From Escherichia coli (lineage in GTDB: Bacteria > Pseudomonadota > Gammaproteobacteria > Enterobacterales > Enterobacteriaceae): 64,000 nucleotides of DNA. Within the stretch, counting starts at the first letter, position 1; each line of letters starts with the position of its first letter. Where the stretch lies: NCBI RefSeq assembly GCF_016903815.1, contig NZ_CP069972.1; one strand, given 5' to 3'. This document shows, piece by piece, positions 6,375-50,321 of this stretch. The notes beneath the pieces were generated by a model, which saw nothing but the letters and a program-made list of their open reading frames with translations, did not search any database and had not been told where the DNA came from. The position numbers and the translations under genes were made by a program.

Positions 6375-6461
6375 GTTAGTTGAAAAGAGATTTCCTCCGG
6401 TCAGGGCCACCCACTCTGTAACGGAACAGTAAAAAAACCGACCTCACCAGTCGGTTTTTTT
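6375..6461 (+). ncRNA. Predicted ~86-nt sRNA, candidate type I antitoxin
   Basis: Starts at the 24-nt repeat GTTAGTTGAAAAGAGATTTCCTCC and ends at an intrinsic terminator (ACCGAC-loop-GTCGGT plus T7 at 6437-6461); no ORF. Confidence 0.5.
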
Positions 6462-6614
6462 ACATCTGTTGTTTCTCAAAATCCGTCCGACATGCCCGTC
6501 ACACCGGGGAAACTCATGCTCTGAATCAGAACCAACCATCTCAACTTTGCCGTCTCCTGAAAAAACTGGCACATTCAGTTCGATAACTACCCATAAATAC
6601 AGAGAGAAAATCCG

Positions 6615-6935: not shown

Positions 6936-7112
6936 CGTTAACGTTTAACTTCGTAGGCTAACGTTGCCACAAGCACTGTGTTTCCCTGCTGGAGCCGGAG
7001 TCCGCAAAGCGAATCCCTCACCATCCAGACAAAACACAGAATCGTCACACAGATGACGATTAACATCATTAAAAACGTTCGCTGTGGCATCATAGCCCCT
7101 CCATTGCCTTAC

Positions 7113-7206
7113 GGCGGTTATCGGGCTACTATAATGTTGTCTAGGCATTACAGTAGAGCCCTTGGTTGATTGATAAAAAAATCTCCAGGGGCTTTCTGCT
7201 GTATAC
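7113..7206. repeat. 85-bp direct repeat copy 1 with internal imperfect palindrome
   Basis: CGGGCTACTATAATG...CATTACAGTAGAGCCC TTGGTTGATTGA...CTCCAGGGGCTTTCTGCTGTATA; near-identical to 7421-7500. Confidence 0.6.
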
Positions 7207-7420
7207 CGTCCACAAAACGCTTTCGGCATACAGCCTCAAGCGCCCGCAGCTATTCTAACGACTTTCGTATCGGTAACAATCCTTTTAACCAGCCCCACAC
7301 ATCTTTCGGACATGGTGAGTACAAAAGGCTGCGCTCTCGAACATTTGACATTGAAAATGATTCAGGTGACAGCCTGAATGTAGCAGGAGTCCCCGTCCTT
7401 CTGGCATAGAAGATGTCAAC

Positions 7421-24906: not shown

Positions 24907-26865
24907 TCAGGCGGCATCAGCCAGGTTAGCGGTGTGTTCAGTGGCATCCGTCTGTGGACGTGGTGCACACATCCAGCCAGGCACCCAGCGGTTGTCTTTC
25001 ATATGGAACTCTGCATGTTCAGCCGCATCGCCTTTCTTCATTTTCTCCGCGTCCCGTGCGGCACCGGACAGTCCGGCCTCATTCAGGGCTGCGATAATCT
25101 GCGGCTTTTTCAGGTGTCCGAAGAAGTTTGCTTTTGTCGGCTGCCACCAGTCGCGCATGTGAAAGCCGATGGCGGTTTCCAGCGAGTCCAGCGGACTGCG
25201 TGACGTGTGACCACACTCGCGGGTCTGGACACCGTTAAGACTGCACGCGGTACAGAAACTGAGCAGGGATAACAGCACCTCCTGGCTAAGTGACAGGAAC
25301 GTCGTCATATCCCGTTCCCATCCTTCCGGCAGCAGGGCAGCAAAACGAGAGTGTTCTGCCATCAGCGCCATGAATGCGGCACCTTCCTTCCCTGACGGTG
25401 CATCGCTGGTCAGCGCATAATGCTCACATTCCAGGCGAATTCTGGCGGGACTACTATGCGCTTTGCTGTCAAACACATTCAGGCAGAGCGTCCATGCCAG
25501 CAGTGCCAGGGATTTGTCCGGTTGCTGCATCAGTGCTGCCTGGACTGCCAGCGTGCGCTCTGAGGTCAATTTAGTCAGCAACGGCAGACTAATTTCCTCC
25601 ACTGACGCGCTCTCCAGCCCCTGTTCCGTGCGGTCAGCGTCGTCAGCCACATCATCCTCACTGCGCAACTGCACACCACGCTGGATACACACATTACCGT
25701 AACGCCAGGACACCACCACGCCACTTCCGGCACGCATCTCCGGCGTCCACGCCCTGACCTTCGCCATGCAGTCAATCAGCTTCATTTCTGCTGCCAGCAG
25801 GTCAGATTCCTCACACTGGTTTTCCAGCGAGTCGTAACGAGCCATCAGTTCGTTCAGACGTTCGTCTTCCGCCTCCGTCAGCACCGCTTCCGGCTCCGGC
25901 AGGTTGCGGTATGCCCGGGCATCTTCACGGCACTCACCGACAGGCTCCATGCGTCCGGCGCACCATTCCCAGCCTTCGGCTTCCCGAAGGAACTCTGCGA
26001 CAGCCTGGAGTTTTTCCAGCAGGGCGGCATCGAGCGCCACGCGGTCGACATAACCGTCCCCGTCATCGCTGAACAAATCGGTGCGCAGTTCGTCTGGCGA
26101 GAAGGCATCAGCCCCCACGAAGCGGAATTTACTGTTCCCCGCCACCGCCACTTCACTTTCGGTCACCAGACGACGAATGGTCTGTACTTCCGGTTTACCG
26201 CCCCATCCCGACTGGCAGGCGGCTTCAAACACCTGCACCTGACGCGCGGTGTCGTTCTCCAGCGCCAGCGCCTGACAGTGCTCTGTGGTGATGCGGTCTT
26301 CTGCCAGCGCATCGAGGATAACCGGAGCAAGGTCTGCCAGTTTCAGCATTCGCTGAACGTGGCGGGGTGAATAGCCCAGCAAATCACCGATTTGTGCAGG
26401 CGTTTTGCCTTCCTGCGCCATTGCGCGGAATCCGGCAATCTGTTCGGCAGGGTGCATATCCCGACGCTGACCGTTCTCGGTCATCGATGCGGCAGTCGCC
26501 AGCTCCTGCGGAATGACCTTCACGCGTACAGGCCAGTCAGCCGGAAGGATGTTGCGCTCTGCCAGCATGTTGAGTGCTGCCAGTCGGCGACCGCCTGCGG
26601 CGACAGCGTAACGGTCACCAGGCAGGGTATGCACGACCAGATTCTGCAGCAGTCCGACGCCCTTAATGGACTCCGCCAGTTCGCTGACGGACTCCGCAGA
26701 ATACGGCACCGTGCGCACATTCAGCGGTGATTTAATCAGCGAGGCCAGCGGCACGCTCACTTCCTCCGTCTGCGCCAGCAGGGCAGACAGGACAGTTTCC
26801 TGCGTTTTTACAGATTTACGGCTTGCTTTGCGGGTGGTTTCTGGTTCACACTTCGTTACAGGCAT
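24907..26865 (-). CDS. ParB-like nuclease domain protein of the leading region (about 652 aa)
   Basis: N-terminal ParB/Sulfiredoxin-like region (…VVHTLPGDRYAVAAGGRRLAAL…) plus long C-terminal extension; upstream of psiB. Confidence 0.65.
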   Translation of the reverse strand: MPVTKCEPETTRKASRKSVKTQETVLSALLAQTEEVSVPLASLIKSPLNVRTVPYSAESVSELAESIKGVGLLQNLVVHTLPGDRYAVAAGGRRLAALNMLAERNILPADWPVRVKVIPQELATAASMTENGQRRDMHPAEQIAGFRAMAQEGKTPAQIGDLLGYSPRHVQRMLKLADLAPVILDALAEDRITTEHCQALALENDTARQVQVFEAACQSGWGGKPEVQTIRRLVTESEVAVAGNSKFRFVGADAFSPDELRTDLFSDDGDGYVDRVALDAALLEKLQAVAEFLREAEGWEWCAGRMEPVGECREDARAYRNLPEPEAVLTEAEDERLNELMARYDSLENQCEESDLLAAEMKLIDCMAKVRAWTPEMRAGSGVVVSWRYGNVCIQRGVQLRSEDDVADDADRTEQGLESASVEEISLPLLTKLTSERTLAVQAALMQQPDKSLALLAWTLCLNVFDSKAHSSPARIRLECEHYALTSDAPSGKEGAAFMALMAEHSRFAALLPEGWERDMTTFLSLSQEVLLSLLSFCTACSLNGVQTRECGHTSRSPLDSLETAIGFHMRDWWQPTKANFFGHLKKPQIIAALNEAGLSGAARDAEKMKKGDAAEHAEFHMKDNRWVPGWMCAPRPQTDATEHTANLADAA

Positions 26866-26923
26866 AATCATCCCCTTATAATTGCTTATGTCCTGCCGGA
26901 CGTTCGCGCGTCCGGCACCTCTC

Positions 26924-28316: not shown

Positions 28317-30650
28317 GTGCGACAGGAAGTCGCTTAACGTATTGTTTTACATTGATAAAACCAGCTATCCCATTAGCTGTAGCCTACCGGGACAGGCGTT
28401 GCCGGCAACGGCGGGGTCTGAAGCTCCCGGGACAACGAGAGCCGGGCGTCAGCCCGGGTAATGCCCCGTGAGGGGCTTTACCTTGCTGCAAGCATCATGC
28501 GGCAGGAGAGCAAGGCTGGTCAGAAGGGTTAACACATGTGAACTGTTGATAAACACCGTTATCGGCAACAGGCCAAAGATGCTGACAGGCCTGAACCAAA
28601 AGGTACGGGGTCCGGTTGCTACCTCGCGCACAGGGAGCACATGGGCGCAGAGACCCCCGGTGAAGAGACAGAACCCGCCCTGACCCTCTGTATGTTAAGC
28701 GGAACCTGGTAAACCCGTATCGCTGCCTCACAGGCAGGTGAACCGCAAGGAACACTGTTAGCGGTGCGGGCATAGGAGGACGGAAAAAGCGAATGCCCGG
28801 CTGTAATAACCGGGATACGGGGCAGGTTCCCCGACGCGAAAGCGGGCAGACTTCCGTCTGGTCTTTAATTGCATGAAAAGCTGTAAAGCAGTCAAAAGGA
28901 TATCAGCGAGATGAATACACACATCAGTGTGTCCACGATACCCCACCCGACAGGCTGGCACACCATAAACTGGAAAGCATGCCATGCCCGGGTGCGAAAG
29001 CTACAGTTACGGATTGCAAAGGCAACCCGACAGCAACAATGGCGGCAGGTCAGAGAACTACAGCGCATCCTCACCCGCTCATTCTCCGGCAAAGCCGTGG
29101 CTGTCAGGCGTGTAACTGAAAATACCGGTAAAAGGACACCCGGTATTGACGGAAAAATATGGCACACACCGAAGGAGAAATGGGAAGGAATATGCAGCCT
29201 GAATCTGTGTGGTTACAGGCCACAGCCACTACGGCGAATACATATCCCAAAATCAAACGGCAAAACGCGACCGCTGGGCATACCCACAATGAGGGACCGG
29301 GCCATGCAGGCACTGTGGCTGCTGGCTCTGGAACCCGTATCCGAGACCACTGCTGACCATAACAGCTATGGTTTCAGACCAATGCGCAGCACGCATGACG
29401 CCATTGAGTCCATTTTTCTGCGGATGAGCCAGAAAGTATCGCCCAAATGGATACTGGAGGGCGATATTAAAGGGTGCTTCGATAACATCAGCCATGACTG
29501 GCTGCTTTCCCATATTCCGATGGACAGGAGACTGCTTAAAAAATGGTTGAAAGCAGGTTACATGGAAAGAGGCGTGTTTAACCATACGAACAGCGGGACA
29601 CCGCAGGGAGGCATCATATCCCCTGTTCTCGCCAACATGGCTCTGGACGGACTGGAGAAGGAACTGATGCAAACGTTCAGGAAAAGTGGTTATCACAGTG
29701 CAAAGCACCAGGTGAATTATGTGAGATATGCTGATGATTTCATCTGTTCAGGCAGCTCCCGTGAATTGCTGGAAAATGAGGTCAGACCACTGATTGCAGC
29801 TTTCATGCGCGAACGAGGGCTGGAACTGTCGGAAGAAAAAACAGCGATCACACATATAGATAAAGGCTTCGACTTTTTAGGGCAGAACGTCAGGAAGTAC
29901 AACGGTAAAATGCTGATTAAACCGTCGAAGAAAAACCTGAAGAACTTCCTCTGTAAAGTCAGAGAAATAATTAAACGCAATCCGACGCTCCCGGCATGGA
30001 AACTGATAGGCCAGCTAAACCCGGTGATCCGGGGATGGGCTACCTATCACCGACACGTCGTGGCGAAAGAAACATTTAATTATGTCGACACCCAAATCTG
30101 GCGAGCTATATGGCGATGGTGTGTAAGACGGCATCCCCGGAAAGGATTGCGGTGGATCGCCGGACGATACTTCTCCTTTGAAGGCAGGCGCTGGATCTTT
30201 AAAGCCATAACCCCGGAAGGGAAAATTCTGACACTCTTCCGGGCAATGGAAACACCGATAAAGCGCCATATAAAAATCAAAGGCGAAGCAACACCATACA
30301 CCCCCGGAATGGAAATCTACTTTGAACGTCGTCTGGATCTAATCTGGAAAGGCAAATCAAAGAAGATGAAGACAGTAGTTCAACTCTGGAAGAGGCAGGG
30401 GAAACACTGTCCGCAGTGCGGACAACTCATAACCAACCAGACCGGATGGAATATACATCACCGGATCAGGAAAGTTATGGGCGGCAGTGACGAACTGACC
30501 AATCTCGAGTTGTTACATCCGAACTGCCACCGACAGTTACACAGCAGGGAAGCCGGTGCTCACCGAAAGCACTTATAAAGGCTTGAGCGGAGTGCGGGGA
30601 AACTCGCACGCTCCGTTCTTAGGGGGCGGCGGCGCAGCAATGTGCCGCTG
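28317..30650 (+). mobile_element. Group II intron (about 2.3 kb) with intron-encoded RT/maturase/HNH protein
   Basis: 5' GTGCG at 28317; about 590 nt of upstream structured RNA; ORF in domain IV; domain V hairpin GAGCGGAGTGCGGGGAAACTCGCACGCTCCGTTC at 30585-30618; 3' end approximate. Confidence 0.75.
28911..30578 (+). CDS. Group II intron-encoded protein: reverse transcriptase, maturase, HNH endonuclease (555 aa)
   Basis: RT motifs (GIDG, YADD) and C-terminal Cys/His HNH segment (CPQCGQ...HHRIRKVMGGSD...HPNCH). Confidence 0.85.
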   Translation: MNTHISVSTIPHPTGWHTINWKACHARVRKLQLRIAKATRQQQWRQVRELQRILTRSFSGKAVAVRRVTENTGKRTPGIDGKIWHTPKEKWEGICSLNLCGYRPQPLRRIHIPKSNGKTRPLGIPTMRDRAMQALWLLALEPVSETTADHNSYGFRPMRSTHDAIESIFLRMSQKVSPKWILEGDIKGCFDNISHDWLLSHIPMDRRLLKKWLKAGYMERGVFNHTNSGTPQGGIISPVLANMALDGLEKELMQTFRKSGYHSAKHQVNYVRYADDFICSGSSRELLENEVRPLIAAFMRERGLELSEEKTAITHIDKGFDFLGQNVRKYNGKMLIKPSKKNLKNFLCKVREIIKRNPTLPAWKLIGQLNPVIRGWATYHRHVVAKETFNYVDTQIWRAIWRWCVRRHPRKGLRWIAGRYFSFEGRRWIFKAITPEGKILTLFRAMETPIKRHIKIKGEATPYTPGMEIYFERRLDLIWKGKSKKMKTVVQLWKRQGKHCPQCGQLITNQTGWNIHHRIRKVMGGSDELTNLELLHPNCHRQLHSREAGAHRKHL

Positions 30651-30856
30651 CTACCCGACCAATAAAAGACAGCCAGAAACGGTGACAGTGTCACGGAATA
30701 TCACACCTGTTCCCTGCATACAGCCATACACTACCTTCTGACCGGAAAGCCGGGCCGGCAGCGCCGCAGGCGCTGCACCCCGCGTTTCCGGCAGGCGTCA
30801 GCCTGCCAGGGGTTTTCGCGCGGGCTGACAGGCGGCCTCCACCGCCTGCCCCTGTA

Positions 30857-36476: not shown

Positions 36477-36910
36477 GTACCGTTTATCACCGTCCGGCTG
36501 ACCCTTCAGGCGATGACAGTTACGTGCGACCGTTGTTTGCCGATCGTTGCCAGGCCGGTTTTCCTTCGCCTGCCACTGATTATGCTGAGCAGGAACTGGA
36601 TCTGAACAGCTATTGCATCAGCAGACCTGCAGCCACCTTCTTTCTGCGCGCCAGCGGTGAATCGATGAACCAGGCTGGCGTGCAGAATGGTGATCTGCTG
36701 GTAGTGGACAGGGCCGAAAAACCACAACACGGGGACATCGTTATCGCTGAGATCGACGGTGAGTTCACCGTCAAACGACTGCTGTTGCGCCCACGCCCGG
36801 CACTGGAGCCGGTTTCAGACAGCCCGGAGTTCCGCACACTGTATCCGGAAAACATCTGTATTTTTGGTGTTGTCACTCACGTGATACACAGGACGCGGGA
36901 GTTACGCTGA
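36473..36910 (+). CDS. impA: ImpA, UmuD-like S24 peptidase (145 aa)
   Basis: LexA/UmuD-type Ser-Lys dyad context (ASGESM ... K); ATGA overlap with impC stop. Confidence 0.85.
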   Translation: MSTVYHRPADPSGDDSYVRPLFADRCQAGFPSPATDYAEQELDLNSYCISRPAATFFLRASGESMNQAGVQNGDLLVVDRAEKPQHGDIVIAEIDGEFTVKRLLLRPRPALEPVSDSPEFRTLYPENICIFGVVTHVIHRTRELR

Positions 36911-38181
36911 TGTTTGCACTGGCTGATATCAACAGTTTCTACGCCTCATGTGAAAAAGTTTTCCGCCCGGACCTTCGCAACGAACCGGTCATCGTACTCA
37001 GCAATAACGATGGCTGTGTGATCGCGCGCAGCCCGGAGGCAAAAGCCCTTGGCATCAGAATGGGGCAGCCCTGGTTTCAGGTGAGACAAATGCGCCTGGA
37101 GAAGAAAATACATGTATTTTCCAGCAATTATGCGCTGTACCACAGCATGAGCCAACGGGTTATGGCTGTTCTGGAGTCGCTTTCTCCCGCAGTTGAGCCC
37201 TACTCAATTGATGAAATGTTCATTGATTTGCGGGGGATAAATCATTGCATCTCTCCGGAGATTTTTGGTCATCAGCTCAGGGAACAGGTAAAGAGCTGGA
37301 CAGGACTCACCATGGGGGTGGGCATTGCGCCTACAAAAACGCTGGCTAAAAGTGCCCAGTGGGCAACAAAGCAATGGCCACAGTTTTCCGGTGTGGTCGC
37401 GCTGACGGCAGAAAACCGTAATCGGATCTTGAAGCTACTGGGGTTGCAGCCAGTTGGTGAGGTCTGGGGAGTAGGACGCAGACTGACGGAAAAGCTGAAT
37501 GCGCTGGGTATTAACACAGCACTGCAGCTGGCGCAGGCTAACACGGCATTCATCCGGAAAAACTTCAGCGTCATTCTTGAGCGTACGGTACGCGAACTCA
37601 ACGGCGAGTCCTGCATATCTCTGGAAGAAGCACCGCCGGCAAAACAGCAGATTGTCTGTAGTCGCAGTTTTGGTGAACGAATCACAGACAAAGATGCCAT
37701 GCACCAGGCTGTTGTTCAGTATGCAGAGCGGGCCGCAGAGAAACTACGTGGGGAGCGTCAGTATTGCCGGCAGGTGACGACATTTGTACGGACATCCCCC
37801 TTTGCAGTAAAAGAACCCTGTTACAGCAATGCCGCTGTGGAAAAGCTTCCATTGCCCACACAGGACAGCCGGGACATTATTGCCGCAGCATGCAGAGCGT
37901 TAAACCATGTCTGGCGTGAAGGGTACCGCTATATGAAGGCAGGTGTCATGCTGGCTGATTTCACACCATCGGGTATAGCGCAGCCGGGATTATTTGATGA
38001 AATCCAGCCCCGTAAAAACAGTGAAAAGTTAATGAAAACACTCGATGAACTGAACCAGTCGGGAAAAGGGAAAGTGTGGTTTGCGGGGCGAGGAACCGCC
38101 CCTGAATGGCAAATGAAACGGGAAATGCTTTCTCCTGCGTATACCACCAGATGGACAGATTTGCCAGTAGCCCAGTTATGA
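36910..38181 (+). CDS. impB: ImpB, UmuC-like Y-family translesion polymerase (423 aa)
   Basis: N-terminal MFALADINSFYASCE typical of UmuC/DinB family; overlaps impA stop. Confidence 0.85.
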   Translation: MFALADINSFYASCEKVFRPDLRNEPVIVLSNNDGCVIARSPEAKALGIRMGQPWFQVRQMRLEKKIHVFSSNYALYHSMSQRVMAVLESLSPAVEPYSIDEMFIDLRGINHCISPEIFGHQLREQVKSWTGLTMGVGIAPTKTLAKSAQWATKQWPQFSGVVALTAENRNRILKLLGLQPVGEVWGVGRRLTEKLNALGINTALQLAQANTAFIRKNFSVILERTVRELNGESCISLEEAPPAKQQIVCSRSFGERITDKDAMHQAVVQYAERAAEKLRGERQYCRQVTTFVRTSPFAVKEPCYSNAAVEKLPLPTQDSRDIIAAACRALNHVWREGYRYMKAGVMLADFTPSGIAQPGLFDEIQPRKNSEKLMKTLDELNQSGKGKVWFAGRGTAPEWQMKREMLSPAYTTRWTDLPVAQL

Positions 38182-38202: not shown

Positions 38203-38276
38203 TTGTTATCCTGTTATCCTGCTATCTTGTTATCTTGTTATCTTGTTATCTTGTTATCTTGTTATCTTGTTATCTT
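38203..38276. repeat. Array of about nine tandem 8-bp TTGTTATC repeats upstream of parA (centromere-like)
   Basis: Direct reading; followed by imperfect palindromes (TTAACAACTTGCTAAGTTGTTAA). Confidence 0.65.
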
Positions 38277-38400
38277 AATTAATCTATAAATCAAATACTT
38301 AACAACTTGCTAAGTTGTTAACATAACAAAAATAATTGCATGGTTCGCGTTCAGATGGCAATATTAAGTTGTTAACTTAACAGCTTAATATGAGGCTATA

Positions 38401-39027
38401 ATGATAATAGTATTAGGTAGTCAAAAGGGTGGGGTAGGTAAAAGTACACTGGCGGTATCTATAGCTGCGTATCTGATGTCACTAGGCAATAGAGTGATTA
38501 TTGTCGACGCAGATGACCAGAAATCAGTATTAACCTGGTACAACAATCGCCCTGAAGATCTCCCTCATATTCCGGTTACAGGCGCGACAGGTAACATCAA
38601 AGCCATGTTAAAGGAACACGAAAAATCCTATGATTTTGTTATTGCAGACTGTGCTGGCCGTGATAGCGCAGAAATGCGTAGTGGATTGATGGCCGCAGAT
38701 GTATTCATTTCTCCTTTGCGCCCATCTCAGATGGACCTGGATGTTGTGCCTCATACATGCTCCGTTTTTACAGCAGCAAAAGATTTTAATGAGGATGTTC
38801 GGGGATATCTCGTTTTAAACATGACGCCCACAAATATGTTTGTTAATGAAGCCAATGAGGCAGCTGAAGTACTTAAGGATTACCCTGAAATGCATCTGGC
38901 AAACTCCCGGGTATGTGATCGTAAAGCACATCGAGATGCTTGGGCCGAATCAATGACAATTTTTGAAACGCAAAATGATAAAGCCCAGCAAGAAATCGAA
39001 GCGTTAGTGAAAGAGGTTATTCTGTGA
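38401..39027 (+). CDS. parA: ParA-family partition ATPase (208 aa)
   Basis: Deviant Walker A GSQKGGVGKST. Confidence 0.75.
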   Translation: MIIVLGSQKGGVGKSTLAVSIAAYLMSLGNRVIIVDADDQKSVLTWYNNRPEDLPHIPVTGATGNIKAMLKEHEKSYDFVIADCAGRDSAEMRSGLMAADVFISPLRPSQMDLDVVPHTCSVFTAAKDFNEDVRGYLVLNMTPTNMFVNEANEAAEVLKDYPEMHLANSRVCDRKAHRDAWAESMTIFETQNDKAQQEIEALVKEVIL

Positions 39028-39326
39028 GAAATAGAGCAAACACTTCACCTCGTGACGAGGCAGCATTTATTAACGGTGGCACGGCTGGCCTTGATAATAC
39101 CAAAAAGTCATCAGATAAATCATCGGTTGTAAGCAAAGCAAAACCAGTGAGTATTTCTTTTTTTGAAGAAAACCTAAAAGACATTGATGCCCTTATAACG
39201 GCTGAGATGGTTTCAGGTAAAGGCAGAGTGAATCGTTCTGATGTTGTCAGGGCGGCGGTAGAAGCACTTAAAACACTATCAAAAACAGAGGTATCACGAT
39301 TGATAGCAGAAGTAAAACAAAGATAA
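39024..39326 (+). CDS. Small centromere-binding partner of ParA (100 aa)
   Basis: Overlaps parA stop; small basic protein; flanked by repeat arrays. Confidence 0.5.
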   Translation: MRNRANTSPRDEAAFINGGTAGLDNTKKSSDKSSVVSKAKPVSISFFEENLKDIDALITAEMVSGKGRVNRSDVVRAAVEALKTLSKTEVSRLIAEVKQR

Positions 39327-39330
39327 CACC

Positions 39331-39396
39331 TTGTTATCTTGTTATCTTGTTATCTTGTTATCTTGTTATCTTGTTATCTTGTTATCTTGTTATCTT
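39331..39396. repeat. Second array of about eight tandem TTGTTATC repeats downstream of the par genes
   Basis: Same 8-bp unit as 38203-38276. Confidence 0.65.
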
Positions 39397-39451
39397 CAAT
39401 GTATTTTAGGATGACCTATGTTGAATAGAACCTAAAACAAAACAAATATTA

Positions 39452-39743
39452 ATAGGGGTCCGCTTGGAAAAGGGAAATTTTCCCACGCTAAGAGAATTGA
39501 GTTGAACGAGTGGTTACATCCAGGCCAGCTAACTCACTGAACGTAAAGGCTGTACGAAATGTTCCGGCCGTCCGATAACCGTTTGGCTTACTTCCGTACA
39601 TTCCCTTGCGTAGATGTACAGAATTGTACGATTTCGGACACCAAAACCGCTGTTGTCCCGCCATTCTGGCGATTCCTGAAAGTCCTTTGACTAAAAAATA
39701 GTCTTAACGTGGTTTATTTTCCGAATTCCAAGCGGACCCCTAT
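39452..39743. mobile_element. MITE-like element (about 290 bp) with perfect 18-bp terminal inverted repeats
   Basis: ATAGGGGTCCGCTTGGAA at 39452-39469 and its exact reverse complement at 39726-39743; no ORF inside. Confidence 0.4.
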
Positions 39744-39945: not shown

Positions 39946-40293
39946 TTACACATCATCCCATGGTGGCAGCCGGTTAACTTTCCTGCGCCACCAGTGGAAA
40001 GAGGCCATGCACAGTCCGAACAAAAAACCCCCCGTGATACTTATAATAATGGCCTCACCTGCCACCATTCCTGACGGCCCCCAGTAGATAAACCACATTG
40101 CACATCCCCAGGAAATGCCCCATAAGCCCCCCGTCAGCACCGTGACCTGCCAGAACGGCATAAAGGGTAATGGCGGAAGCCGGATACCCAGCCGCCATAG
40201 AATACGCAGAAGAGGAGGGGCATAATTGCTCCGCCACATCTTTTTGCTGTCCATCAGGGCAATGGCCCGGGCTTTTTTCTGCTCAAAGGTCAC
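39946..40293 (-). CDS. Hypothetical membrane protein (115 aa)
   Basis: GTG start with SD GGAGG 7 nt upstream; two or three TM helices; adjacent to the colicin immunity gene. Confidence 0.45.
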   Translation of the reverse strand: MTFEQKKARAIALMDSKKMWRSNYAPPLLRILWRLGIRLPPLPFMPFWQVTVLTGGLWGISWGCAMWFIYWGPSGMVAGEAIIISITGGFLFGLCMASFHWWRRKVNRLPPWDDV

Positions 40294-40421: not shown

Positions 40422-40757
40422 ATGAACAGAAAATATTATTTTAATAATATGTGGTGGGGATGGGTGACGGGGGGATATATGCTGTATATGTCATGGGATT
40501 ATGATTTTAAATACAGATTACTGTTCTGGTGTATTTCTCTCTGCGGAATGGTTTTGTATCCAGTTGCAAAATGGTATATTGAGGATACAGCTCTGAAATT
40601 TACCCGGCCTGATTTCTGGAACAGCGGTTTTTTTGCTGATACACCTGGAAAAATGGGATTGCTTGCTGTTTATACGGGTACTGTTTTCATATTATCTCTT
40701 CCGTTAAGTATGATATATACTCTTTCTGTTATTATAAAAAGGCTGTCTGTAAGATAG
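40422..40757 (+). CDS. iia: Colicin Ia immunity protein (111 aa)
   Basis: MNRKYYFNNMWWGWVTGGYMLYMSWDY...; convergent with and immediately downstream of the colicin gene; 111 aa as for Ia immunity (recollection). Confidence 0.8.
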   Translation: MNRKYYFNNMWWGWVTGGYMLYMSWDYDFKYRLLFWCISLCGMVLYPVAKWYIEDTALKFTRPDFWNSGFFADTPGKMGLLAVYTGTVFILSLPLSMIYTLSVIIKRLSVR

Positions 40758-40778: not shown

Positions 40779-42659
40779 TTAAATACCCCAGAACTTATTC
40801 GCTTTTTCCACAAGCGATTCATCAATCAGCGCACCGGTGACAGCCATCAGTAAACCATACCCGATAATGCCTAAAGCGCTTCCGGTAAGAATACTGAAGA
40901 CCAGTGCAACAAGAGCCGTTGCGGCATTGCCTGCTATAATGGCTTCTGTTTTAACAAAAAGAGGACGCCAGTTCTCTGTCCGGACAGCCTTACCAAACTC
41001 AGTGATCCAGTCAGCAAGACTTGTAAATTTTCCTGCATATCCCAGTCCCCGACTGAATCTGTTCAGATTAGACGATATATCAGACAGCTTCACAGACTCA
41101 AGGGCTGCGGCAATCGCTGCACGATCTTTTGCATTAATTTTTTTGTTAATGTCAGCCCGGTACTTTTCATACGTTTTTAATGCCTCTTCAACATTACGTA
41201 TTTTCTTCCCTTTAGCCTGCCCGGCCATCTCTCTGGCTAACTGCTCAGCTTTTGCACCATATTTTTCTGAAACTGATTTCAGGAACTCTGTTGTGAAATT
41301 AATTGCGTCTTTCGTTTCCTTCAGTTCATCCTGTTTTCTTTTCTCTTCCGCTATCTTCTGATTGATGCCGGCAAGCTGGTTACGGATATTCTCTTTTTCC
41401 TTCAACAGGGCATTAAGAGCGTCATTTGCATGCTTTTGCTCATTTGTTCTGGCACTGAGGTTATTTCTCGCCGAATTTACCGCAGATTCAGCAGAGGTGA
41501 TTTTATTTCTGGCATCAAGCAATCTTTGCCGTAACTTATCCCATTCAGCAACTTCAGCATTATAAATTTTCTTGTCACCTTCCACATCCTCTGTCACCAC
41601 CGGATTCCGGTCATTCAGAATATTGCGTTTATAGTCCAGACCGGAATGGGTCAGAAGATAATTCAGGTTTGCACGGTTATCGATGACTGCGCTGGTTGTG
41701 ATTTTTATCGTACCGGCAAATCTCGGATCACCGCTCACAACAATAGAATGATTTGTTGATGAACGCCCCGGGAATTTTTCAGGGGAAACTATCGTTTTGC
41801 CGTCAGGCGTGTTTTTCTGTTGCGTCAGCTGTTGTTCAGCTCTGGTTAATGCATTACGGGCCGTGTTAAGCGATTCCGTCACTGAACTGAGTTTATTCCG
41901 GGCCTCTGAAATGGCCCTGTCATTCCGTGTCTGCTGCCCGAGCAGACGGGCCTGTTGTGCATCAAGAACGGCAAGGGCTGCCCCGCCATTTTTTTCCAGC
42001 TCTGACAACCGCGTGTCCAGAATACCTTTTCTGCGCTCGTATTCAGCAAGCATATCAGCGGCCTTCTTGTCTGCGTTCTGCGCATCCTTCTGCCGTTTTT
42101 CAGCCTGTTCGATTAACGACCTGGCCTCCCGGGGAGATATACGAAGAGAATCAGCATCAGCAAAGAGCATCCGGCTCTCTGTATGCAGCCGGAGGGCATC
42201 ATATCCGGCGATTTCAGTACGGAATCCGTATTCTCTCAGCTCTGCCTGCAGGAGTCTGAACTCCTGTCGTGTAATATCAGCGGCATCTGCGTTTCCGGCA
42301 CGGAGTGTTTTCAGTGTGTTTTCATCTTTTTCCCTTGCAGCAATCGCCGCAGAGAGGCGTTTTCCGGCTTCAGTACGCTTATTCTCATTCTCTTTCTGCT
42401 GCGCGCTGAGCGTGTTTTTGTACGCTGTGATTTCCTTGTCCCTTTTTTCGATATCACTTCGGGTTGGGGAATCATCAACCCACTCGTTTCCGCCCCAGAT
42501 GGTTTTGTTCCCGAAGGAACTCCATGCAGGCGGGGTACCATGAAAGACATCGACACGTGGAGGGTTTACATAAATATCAACGGCCATAATTTCATGGCCA
42601 TCTGAATCATACCCCAGCGATTCTGCACCGGGATTTGTAATACGTACAGGGTCAGACAT
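40779..42659 (-). CDS. cia: Colicin Ia, pore-forming (626 aa)
   Basis: MSDPVRITNPGAESLGYDSDGHEIMAVDIYVNPPRVDVFHGTPPAW... N-terminus and C-terminal hydrophobic hairpin of the Ia/Ib family; Ia vs Ib call rests on the immunity protein. Confidence 0.85.
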   Translation of the reverse strand: MSDPVRITNPGAESLGYDSDGHEIMAVDIYVNPPRVDVFHGTPPAWSSFGNKTIWGGNEWVDDSPTRSDIEKRDKEITAYKNTLSAQQKENENKRTEAGKRLSAAIAAREKDENTLKTLRAGNADAADITRQEFRLLQAELREYGFRTEIAGYDALRLHTESRMLFADADSLRISPREARSLIEQAEKRQKDAQNADKKAADMLAEYERRKGILDTRLSELEKNGGAALAVLDAQQARLLGQQTRNDRAISEARNKLSSVTESLNTARNALTRAEQQLTQQKNTPDGKTIVSPEKFPGRSSTNHSIVVSGDPRFAGTIKITTSAVIDNRANLNYLLTHSGLDYKRNILNDRNPVVTEDVEGDKKIYNAEVAEWDKLRQRLLDARNKITSAESAVNSARNNLSARTNEQKHANDALNALLKEKENIRNQLAGINQKIAEEKRKQDELKETKDAINFTTEFLKSVSEKYGAKAEQLAREMAGQAKGKKIRNVEEALKTYEKYRADINKKINAKDRAAIAAALESVKLSDISSNLNRFSRGLGYAGKFTSLADWITEFGKAVRTENWRPLFVKTEAIIAGNAATALVALVFSILTGSALGIIGYGLLMAVTGALIDESLVEKANKFWGI

Positions 42660-47905: not shown

Positions 47906-47982
47906 AAGCTGTCGCTTATGGCGGAGCGATTGTGCCGTGTATTTATACACTGCACAGGGTTGAATCTCTGGTACGGTTTCAT
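47893..47982 (-). CDS. repY: Leader peptide RepY (29 aa)
   Basis: ATG at 47982 to TGA at 47893 encodes MKPYQRFNPVQCINTRHNRSAISDSLWQV; stop overlaps repZ start region. Confidence 0.65.
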   Translation of the reverse strand: MKPYQRFNPVQCINTRHNRSAISDSLWQV

Positions 47983-47994
47983 TATACTTTACCC

Positions 47995-48070
47995 GTATTC
48001 TGTGAGGCCCCCACTATCTTTCGTCGTTCCGCCAAGTTCGTAAGAAAGATAGTGGGGGTTTTCCTTTTAT
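47995..48070 (+). ncRNA. inc: Inc antisense RNA (about 70 nt) of the repZ replicon
   Basis: Promoter TTGAAT-17-TATACT (47960-47988); 15-bp stem CCCCCACTATCTTTC/GAAAGATAGTGGGGG with loop containing CGCCAA, then T-run; antisense to repZ leader. Confidence 0.6.
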
Positions 48071-49058
48071 GGCTTCCGGAACATCTTCAGTCTTCTGACT
48101 TACTGCCCGTACATGCCATCTCTCCTGAATGCCTTATGGCGCATTCTGCCGTCCGGCTTTCGCCGCTTTGCTCCACAGAGTGCCACCCTCTGCACAGCTA
48201 ATAACAGCCGAAATATACCCGCTTTACGTTAATTTGAAAAGCATTACAACGATCTCTTCTCTTCCAGTGCCTCCTCACTGATACCTCTAATAAGTTAATC
48301 TTGACCTGCGTCAAAAAAATAAAATCTATTTTTAAAAGCAGATTTTTCTGCTTTAGATCTTTCTTTTGGATTAAAAGATCGACTTTTGTCCTACTCACGA
48401 TCATTTATCTTACAACCGATCTACCTAACAGAATAATATTCTGTTTTAATGCAATTAAACGATCTAAATAACCTTTAAAAAATCATTTTGTAGATCATTC
48501 GATCGTAAATAGAATAATTCTTAGATGATAAAACCATTTGTTACACAACCCGCCAATTGTGTAACAACAGCCTCTACAAGAGCATATTTGTTCATATGTT
48601 CGTCAGAACTGCGGATTGTCTGGACGAGGGTCAGACACCGTTTCGTGCATATGGACCAGCATGTTCGAACGCCACAAAGCAGAAGCATCATGCCTGGATC
48701 GCTTCGGCGCGGAGCGTTAAGTTTTGACGCTTTTTTGTATGTTTTTTAAGCTGTTAGTTGACTCGGTGCGTTATACTAAGTACCCTTTACTGGTCACAGG
48801 CAAAACTGTGATCGGGCGTAGGAACCCGCGTAGTCATCGTCGGCGCAGAAGTTAATTTCTTCATTTGGCGTCGTTTTTTGCCATACCATAAAGACAGGAA
48901 CTTGTATTTCTTGTCGTCATCTATGGTAGCTCAGGCGGGGCAGGCATTAGCCTGGCCGGTTTCCGATGACGCCGGTATTCCTACCCCCGTCTGGGCTATC
49001 ACCAATGAGCGTAGGAACTCGGTGATAGCGTTTTTAGTTGTCATCGGAGACCGTTGCT

Positions 49059-49787: not shown

Positions 49788-50321
49788 GTGAATATAGAAC
49801 ACCTGAATAACCGGAACTGGTATCTTGCGCAATATAATACAGCCGGCAAAAACAGAGAATCTTTATTCTCATGGCTGAATGAGCAAAACGTCGTACCATG
49901 GACTCCATTAATAACAAGAAAGATAAGACGGGCAGACTCCAGGTGCTGTTACCGTGAAAGAATATTCGCTATTTTTCCAGGGTACTTTTTTATTCTGGCT
50001 AATTTTGACATTCACCCAGTATCAGCATTACGTCGACATAGCGCCTTCATTGATTTCGTGAAGTTTGGCGGTGAAATAAAACCCGTCAATAAAGATATTG
50101 TTGATGGATTAATGAAGATTTACCCGGACCCTGTGCTAAATCCGGGAGCCAGGGAAGAGCTGAATGCGGCTTCCAGCATATGGCTGACAAAAGCACAATA
50201 TCAGTATCTCCTCAGAATGGAAAATACTCTCCAGCCTGAGTCGAGGATATCCCTGCTCCTGGAACTGGTATCAAATGCCGAACATCACGGCTTTATGGAG
50301 CGCCTTGTAAACATCCCATAG
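49788..50321 (+). CDS. NusG/RfaH-family transcription antiterminator paralog (TraB-like)
   Basis: N-terminal NWYLAQY... resembles RfaH WYLLYCK; the track ORF starts at TTG 49767; GTG 49788 has an SD; terminator at 50331-50357. Confidence 0.5.
   Translation: MNIEHLNNRNWYLAQYNTAGKNRESLFSWLNEQNVVPWTPLITRKIRRADSRCCYRERIFAIFPGYFFILANFDIHPVSALRRHSAFIDFVKFGGEIKPVNKDIVDGLMKIYPDPVLNPGAREELNAASSIWLTKAQYQYLLRMENTLQPESRISLLLELVSNAEHHGFMERLVNIP

Follow-up and report, generated by a model that had tools for sequence, protein, structure and literature searches.

Does a pair of plasmid partition genes that is bracketed by two arrays of the same 8-bp repeat have two centromere-like sites rather than a single upstream one? 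This question is raised by positions 38203-39396 of the stretch analysed here, 64,000 nucleotides of the Escherichia coli contig NZ_CP069972.1 (hereafter the window). The locus is very probably the type Ib ParABS plasmid partition cassette known from the IncI1 plasmid pESBL. It is real and functional but not new, as the identity of the locus, the repeat-binding ParB and the layout were all published in 2020.

Identity with the pESBL partition locus

The two predicted proteins were compared by BLASTP with those of the pESBL reference, the IncI1 plasmid of E. coli O104:H4 (NC_018659; locus L003), using O3K_25822 with its N-terminal extension (208 amino acids) for ParA and Hp7/O3K_25817 (100 amino acids) for ParB. 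Both were identical throughout, at 208/208 and 100/100 residues. The upstream array of the window shares its unit and its flanks (CCATAATA...CTTAATTAA) with the published 7-DR probe, and the octamer unit of the downstream array is also present in the 8-BS probe of pESBL.

Daniel et al. 2020 (Genes 11:1207; PMC7602700) characterised the partition locus of pESBL. Insertions in its par region of about 1 kb were lost without selection in transposon insertion sequencing (Tn-seq), the cloned locus stabilised a par-minus mini-F plasmid, and foci of Hp7 (ParB) fused to green fluorescent protein (GFP) appeared only when pESBL was present (PMC7602700). In electrophoretic mobility shift assays (EMSA), ParB shifted both 7-DR, made of seven direct octamers, and 8-BS, made of four inverted and four direct octamers, and the number of ParB-DNA complexes equalled the number of octamers in the probe; the supplementary oligonucleotide table identifies 7-DR as the native upstream array and traces 8-BS to the downstream region (PMC7602700). 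The initial annotation had proposed two centromere-like sites flanking the genes. This proposal fits the published locus and is correct but already in the literature, since the proteins are identical and ParB bound probes from both arrays (PMC7602700). The possibility that only one array binds the partner protein, which would have spoken against the proposal, is largely answered in the negative for binding by the same assays, both probes having been shifted (PMC7602700). The pESBL locus was classed as type Ib and dual arrays were cited for pB171 and pSM19035 as well, so the two-array layout is not unusual for this type (PMC7602700).

The octamer is common to the two plasmids (GATAACAA = TTGTTATC), the arrays stand on both sides of parAB in each, and the upstream neighbour (impB/umuC-like) and the promoter region are the same. 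pESBL differs only in the size and layout of the arrays, with 7 units upstream against 9 in the window, and with about 5 inverted and 10 direct units downstream (several of them TTGTCATC) against 1 inverted and 8 direct. At about 49870-49900 of pESBL (compare 39394-39400 of the window), a Tn3 terminal inverted repeat (GGGGTCTGACGCTCAGTGGAACG) abuts the last downstream octamer; the transposon, which carries TEM-1, therefore went in at the border of the centromere array. A literature search retrieved no follow-up paper dissecting the pESBL arrays; another pESBL paper mentioning ParB deals with UvrD in conjugative DNA transfer, not with the par locus (PMC10085688), and searching full texts for the octamer strings turned up nothing but unrelated primer and sequence matches.

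Class of the partition ATPase

ParA has a deviant Walker A motif, KGGVGKST, at residues 9-16 and matches MipZ (2.4e-19), AAA_31 and CbiA in Pfam. Its match to NCBIfam ParA_partition (1e-45, 155.8 bits) is below the 180-bit equivalog cut-off. The nearest solved structure is ParF of TP228 (4dzz; E = 2.3e-14, residues 6-207, roughly 30% identity), while P1 ParA gave a local match only (3ez7, E = 2e-4) and the ATPase delta of pSM19035 a weak one (2oze, E = 7e-4). The protein has no N-terminal DNA-binding domain and is therefore a type Ib ATPase. The other features of the type are found at the locus too, namely a small (~200 amino acids) deviant Walker-A ParA and short iterated repeats beside a coupled parA-parB operon. 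Type Ia ParABS (P1/F-like) was considered and rejected, as ParA is 208 amino acids long with its Walker A motif at the N-terminus and ParB matches neither ParB_N nor HTH_ParB.

Octamer arrays in the window

Tandem Repeats Finder (TRF) reported a period of 8 for both arrays, with 9.2 copies and 93% matches upstream (unit TTGTTATC) and 8.4 copies and 100% matches downstream (Table 1). Exact and one-mismatch searches resolved the upstream array into nine direct units, seven of them exact TTGTTATC and the others CTGTTATC (38211) and CTGCTATC (38219). Exact TTGTTATC occurs 19 times in the window, compared with 2.15 +/- 1.49 times in dinucleotide-preserving shuffles (n=100), none of which (0/100) reached 19. 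Sixteen of the 19 lie inside the two arrays, all on the + strand: seven upstream and eight downstream in register, plus the one at 38203.

The initial annotation had counted about nine repeats upstream and about eight downstream, and these counts and its coordinates were accurate by both TRF and exact search. The arrays also bracket parA and its small partner as described there, the two open reading frames (ORFs; 38401-39027 and 39024-39326) sitting between them. A single inverted octamer at 39322-39329 is an extra copy that it had not listed, and 4 nt separate the parB stop codon from the start of the downstream array. pESBL and some relatives carry 2-4 more inverted units after the position of this inverted octamer.

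Distribution and conservation of the arrays

The par cassette was found in 1,423 PLSDB plasmids, about 660 of them at >= 90% nucleotide identity and 764 at 80-90%. Sampled plasmids of the lower band were mostly from Klebsiella, and the sampled Klebsiella versions carry an IncR replicon; where wider flanks were sampled (L004), the cassette directly follows repB. A set of 13 near-relative loci, including the window, was defined by a ParB at least 82% identical to the window's and covers IncI1/B/O, IncK2/Z, IncI-gamma/K1, IncF-cointegrate and IncR replicons.

Both arrays, with the unit TTGTTATC, were present in all of these loci (13/13). The upstream array has 3-9 units. Counted from the ATG, the end of this array nearest the promoter lies constantly at -126 in the 11 loci of the IncI complex; among the four IncR-group loci it stands at -157 in three and at -124 in L005. 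Downstream there are 5-14 direct units; five loci have 2-4 inverted units ahead of them, and in the others the direct units begin 4 nt past the stop codon. The arrays thus persist while the adjoining non-coding DNA and the flanking genes differ, which argues for selection on both arrays, with copy number probably varying by slippage-type change.

That the arrays are functionless, slippage-prone microsatellites carried along with the genes is a reading to which the wide variation in copy number between near-identical plasmids (3-9 upstream, 5-14 downstream), typical of replication slippage, lends some weight, but it is scarcely credible. ParB binds the octamers specifically in vitro and forms foci only with the plasmid present (PMC7602700), both arrays are kept across replicon types while the neighbouring non-coding DNA diverges, no examined locus with intact parAB is entirely without arrays, and the sole locus without parA (L008) has also lost nearly all of its repeats. 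It is just as improbable that a plasmid Rep protein uses the arrays as replication iterons or incompatibility sites. IncR plasmids do have the upstream array between repB and parA, but the same arrays accompany parAB beside unrelated replicons (IncK2/Z, IncF, IncR) and the IncI-type repZ of the window is ~9 kb off; the arrays therefore track parAB, not rep. Both readings were rejected as contradicted by the ParB binding data and by this association with parAB across unrelated replicons.

The locus without parA lies on a 290-kb plasmid of Salmonella Infantis (CP113993, positions 2501-2842) and consists of an orphan parB with ~94% nucleotide identity. All of parA except the last ~20 nt is deleted and only ~1.5 octamers are left downstream. 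This is what is left of a decayed cassette in pESI-like megaplasmids.

More distant relatives (ParB 58-71% identical) were found by searches for homologous proteins and the contigs encoding them, and their arrays are built differently. In the Citrobacter-type locus, TTACTATC and TTGTTATC occur together in a degenerate upstream array, and 4 or 8 TTGTTATC units stand downstream. Nine TTGTTATC units stand upstream in an Erwinia locus (L011), whose downstream side instead carries TTGTTAAC-type inverted pairs with a period of 16 bp. The Atlantibacter-type locus has no real upstream array but two downstream ones, ATAACAAC and GATAGTAA, both in the opposite orientation to the arrays of the other loci.

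Promoter region and candidate operator

Eight loci (IncI, IncK, IncR, IncF, Erwinia) were aligned over the interval from the upstream array to the ATG. TTGnnn and TGGCAATAT stand 17 nt apart throughout, with a spacer of varying sequence between them, and on this basis the parAB promoter is placed, as a candidate, at 38336-38364. The best site of a consensus scan, TTGCTA-18-AATAAT at 38307-38336, was discarded, its -35 not being conserved in relatives; the scan called no site at 38336-38364 and gave no more matches than shuffles. No intrinsic terminator was found after parB.

Two palindromes lie between the array and parA (Table 1). The imperfect one at 38299-38321 has TTGTTAAC-type half-sites one mismatch from the octamer and is only partly conserved among relatives. 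The 31-bp palindrome is conserved, overlaps the putative -10 and the leader just upstream of the Shine-Dalgarno sequence GAGG (38392-38395), and is perfect in two IncR loci (L004, L005) and in the Erwinia locus L011. It is proposed as a candidate ParB operator because its TTGTTAAC half-sites differ by one base from the centromere unit and because TTGTTAAC-type inverted pairs stand in place of the downstream array in Erwinia.

These sites bear on the main rival to two flanking centromeres, a division of labour in which a single array, most probably that on the downstream side, would work as the centromere, while the upstream array and the promoter palindrome would serve mainly as operator for ParB autoregulation. 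The upstream array does stop at a constant 126 bp from the ATG, close to the promoter region, although it lies ~60 bp upstream of the putative -35 and does not overlap it. The upstream site of pB171 has a part in regulation, and whether that of pESBL does too is left open by its authors (PMC7602700). The operator and centromere of TP228 are adjacent arrays of the same box, but both of them act as centromeres (PMC3130281). Loss of the upstream array from two loci that have two downstream arrays (L013, L014) would agree with such a division, whereas the Erwinia locus keeps an upstream TTGTTATC array without a downstream one, and the upstream array can therefore be the only long array. On balance this arrangement is regarded as possible but rather unlikely.

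ParB and its predicted fold

The GTG start of parB overlaps the TGA stop codon of parA. Across a family alignment of 29 sequences, ParB is laid out as a conserved N-terminal tail (residues 1-21; consensus MRNRANTxPRDExAFINGG), a variable linker (22-37) and a predicted ribbon-helix-helix (RHH) domain (40-100). Invariant positions are R2, N3, R4, E12, F15, I16, G18 and G19 in the tail and K40, P41, V42, S43, S45, N70, R71, S72 and D73 in the C-terminal half.

Pfam RHH_1 was matched weakly by 12 of the 29 family members, and some database entries for close ParB variants are labelled ribbon-helix-helix. One near relative (L007; NZ_CP086260, locus at 2343-2657) has a 104-amino-acid ParB with a 4-residue insertion, KGFD, in the variable linker; NCBI labels this form 'ribbon-helix-helix domain-containing protein' and the 100-amino-acid form 'hypothetical protein'.

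The AlphaFold2 monomer shows a low-confidence N-terminus and three helices. As the strands of an RHH protein form only in the dimer, residues 36-100 were also modelled in two copies joined by a flexible linker, with an alignment of the same construct for 23 homologues. The linked dimer has a strand at 40-46 in each half, followed by helices at 48-63, 71-82 and 87-100, and a predicted template modelling score (pTM) of 0.75; the predicted local distance difference test (pLDDT) of the structured parts is > 90. ParB, for which no DNA-binding motif was predicted in pESBL (PMC7602700), is thus modelled confidently as an RHH dimer. It is predicted to belong with ParG, omega and the ParB of pCXC100, the RHH centromere binders of type Ib systems (PMC3074162).

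Proposed mechanism and its weighing

Under the two-centromere reading, ParB dimers would coat both arrays cooperatively, with about one ParB unit per octamer, and so form the partition complex. The conserved N-terminal tail of ParB would contact and stimulate the ParF-like ParA, which would be nucleoid-bound in its ATP form, and the resulting ParA gradient would place plasmid copies on both sides of the plane of division. From the TTGTTAAC promoter palindrome (probably) and the upstream array (possibly), bound ParB would most likely repress parAB. Binding, foci and stabilisation were published for identical proteins; stimulation of the ATPase by the tail, autoregulation through the palindrome and the activity of both arrays as centromeres in vivo are suggested by homology with TP228 and other type Ib systems.

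Several results count against this account. Neither the stabilising fragment nor the deletion mutant of pESBL was array-specific, and the published data do not separate the two arrays. Deletion of par alone did not destabilise pESBL, an outcome explained by toxin-antitoxin killing and re-conjugation masking the effect (PMC7602700). L013 and L014 are without an upstream array and L011 is without a downstream TTGTTATC array; two flanking arrays are therefore not obligatory for the family, although they are the rule in the IncI/IncR lineage. Such lineage-specific loss of one or the other array also argues that either side can carry centromere function. As for the protein, searches of Pfam, NCBIfam and PDB with the single sequence and with the family profile gave nothing significant and placed ParB in no family. 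The Foldseek matches of the monomer model were all RHH proteins (ParD2, ParD1, PrpA, Reg576) but had E >= 2 and were not relied on, and the RHH assignment itself rests on the model of an artificially linked dimer.

A joint reading of these features is offered tentatively, as one that may well fail as a whole. ParB would read a degenerate core (roughly TTnnTAnC) through its family-invariant beta-strand, so that unit type (TTGTTATC, TTACTATC, TTGTTAAC, TTGTTATG), orientation and side could change freely from lineage to lineage; the TTGTTAAC promoter palindrome would serve ParB solely as an operator, separate from the centromere arrays; and IncI1, IncK/B/O/Z, IncI-gamma and IncR plasmids would interfere with one another in partition. 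If true, par-mediated incompatibility would be expected despite compatible replicons, since these plasmids have the same ParA and near-identical ParB and parS.

The par locus helps to keep resistance and virulence plasmids of the IncI complex and the IncR group in Enterobacteriaceae. What is added here to the published description consists of incremental leads, namely the predicted RHH dimer of a ParB reported without a recognisable DNA-binding motif, the conservation and plasticity of the arrays with free change in copy number, and the candidate operator, and not a new kind of system.

Plasmid context in the window

Upstream of the par locus are a umuD-like gene and an impB/umuC-like gene (36910-38181), and downstream are a DUF6404 gene, a colicin immunity gene and colicin Ia (Table 1). 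An IncI-type repZ pseudoknot is present, and the window is therefore from an IncI-complex plasmid; the best match over its par region is an IncK2/Z plasmid.

Just downstream of par, at 39452-39743, is an element of ~290 bp with imperfect terminal inverted repeats of 47 nt (ATAGGGGTCCGCTTGGAA... / ...TTCCAAGCGGACCCCTAT), which looks like a miniature inverted-repeat transposable element (MITE). Of 5,426 complete E. coli genomes, 1,368 contain the unit bounded by these repeats (90-99% identity), with <=8 copies per genome, and 1,768 of its 1,802 places are on plasmids. A gene at 24907-26871 (- strand) codes for a 654-amino-acid protein with ParB_N and HTH_ParB domains. This ParB-like gene is an orphan, lacking a neighbouring ParA, and bears no relation to the type Ib ParB. 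A group II intron lies at 28361-30659 (+ strand; Rfam D1-D4 and domain V/VI matches), and its ORF (28911-30578, 555 amino acids) is annotated as an ltrA reverse transcriptase/maturase in related plasmids.

Table 1. Coordinates of the par locus and of other features in the window
Feature	Position	Strand	Remarks
upstream parS array	38203..38276	+	9 direct 8-bp units + partial unit; TRF, exact/1-mismatch searches
imperfect palindrome TTAACAACTT-gct-AAGTTGTTAA	38299..38321	.	repeat search; 1-mismatch matches at 38315 and 38322
candidate parAB promoter	38336..38364	+	-35 TTGCAT 38336-38341, 17-nt spacer, -10 CAATAT 38359-38364, TG 38356-38357 before -10
31-bp palindrome ATATTAAGTTGTTAA-c-TTAACAgCTTAATAT (ATATTAAGTTGTTAAcTTAACAgCTTAATAT)	38361..38391	.	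15-nt arms, 93% complementary; repeat search
parA	38401..39027	+	208-aa Walker-type partition ATPase (KGGVGKST), without N-terminal DNA-binding domain
parB (Hp7)	39024..39326	+	100-aa centromere-binding protein
single inverted octamer	39322..39329	-	GTGTTATC on minus strand; overlaps parB stop codon
downstream parS array	39330..39396	+	8 exact direct TTGTTATC units at 39331-39394; TRF, exact search
DUF6404 ORF	39946-40293	-	between par locus and yagA
colicin-immunity-like ORF	40422-40757		Pfam Microcin; between par locus and yagA
colicin Ia	40779-42659	-	between par locus and yagA
AgrB	6376-6463	+	Rfam
sok antitoxin RNA	7088-7245	-	Rfam; pnd/hok-type killer system, also analysed in the pESBL paper (PMC7602700)
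repZ regulatory pseudoknot (PK-repZ), IncI-type	47918-48066	-	Rfam; about 9 kb from arrays
C4 antisense RNA-like element	48919-49006	+	Rfam

Comparison with other partition systems

By analogy, the closest mechanistic parallel to the locus would be OF/parH of TP228 parFGH. ParA is homologous over its full length to ParF (E = 2.3e-14, roughly 30% identity), and the partner ParG is likewise a small RHH protein with a flexible N-terminal tail, the RHH fold of ParB being predicted. The TP228 sites have a period of 8 bp, made up of a 4-bp box and an AT-rich spacer of 4 bp, and occur in both direct and inverted orientation. Arrays of a single box, ACTC, form both the operator OF and the centromere parH beside it, each box taking one ParG dimer (PMC3130281). 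The systems differ in that no sequence similarity between ParB and ParG is detectable, in the box itself (ACTC versus TTGTTATC) and in the placement of the sites, all 20 boxes of TP228 being upstream of the genes whereas the arrays of the window flank the operon.

The repeats of pB171 are 6 bp long, unlike the 8-bp unit of the window. The pB171 par2 locus (parC1-parA-parB-parC2) is also a type Ib operon bracketed by upstream and downstream centromere arrays (PMC4270457, PMC7602700), and its upstream site is cited as also taking part in regulation (PMC7602700). The delta/omega system of pSM19035 likewise pairs a Walker ATPase with an RHH protein that binds short contiguous direct or inverted repeats at several sites, the same protein acting as repressor and as centromere binder (PMC3074150). 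It differs from the locus in the window in being Gram-positive, in using 7-bp heptads and in its genes, which do not form a simple parA-parB operon flanked by arrays.
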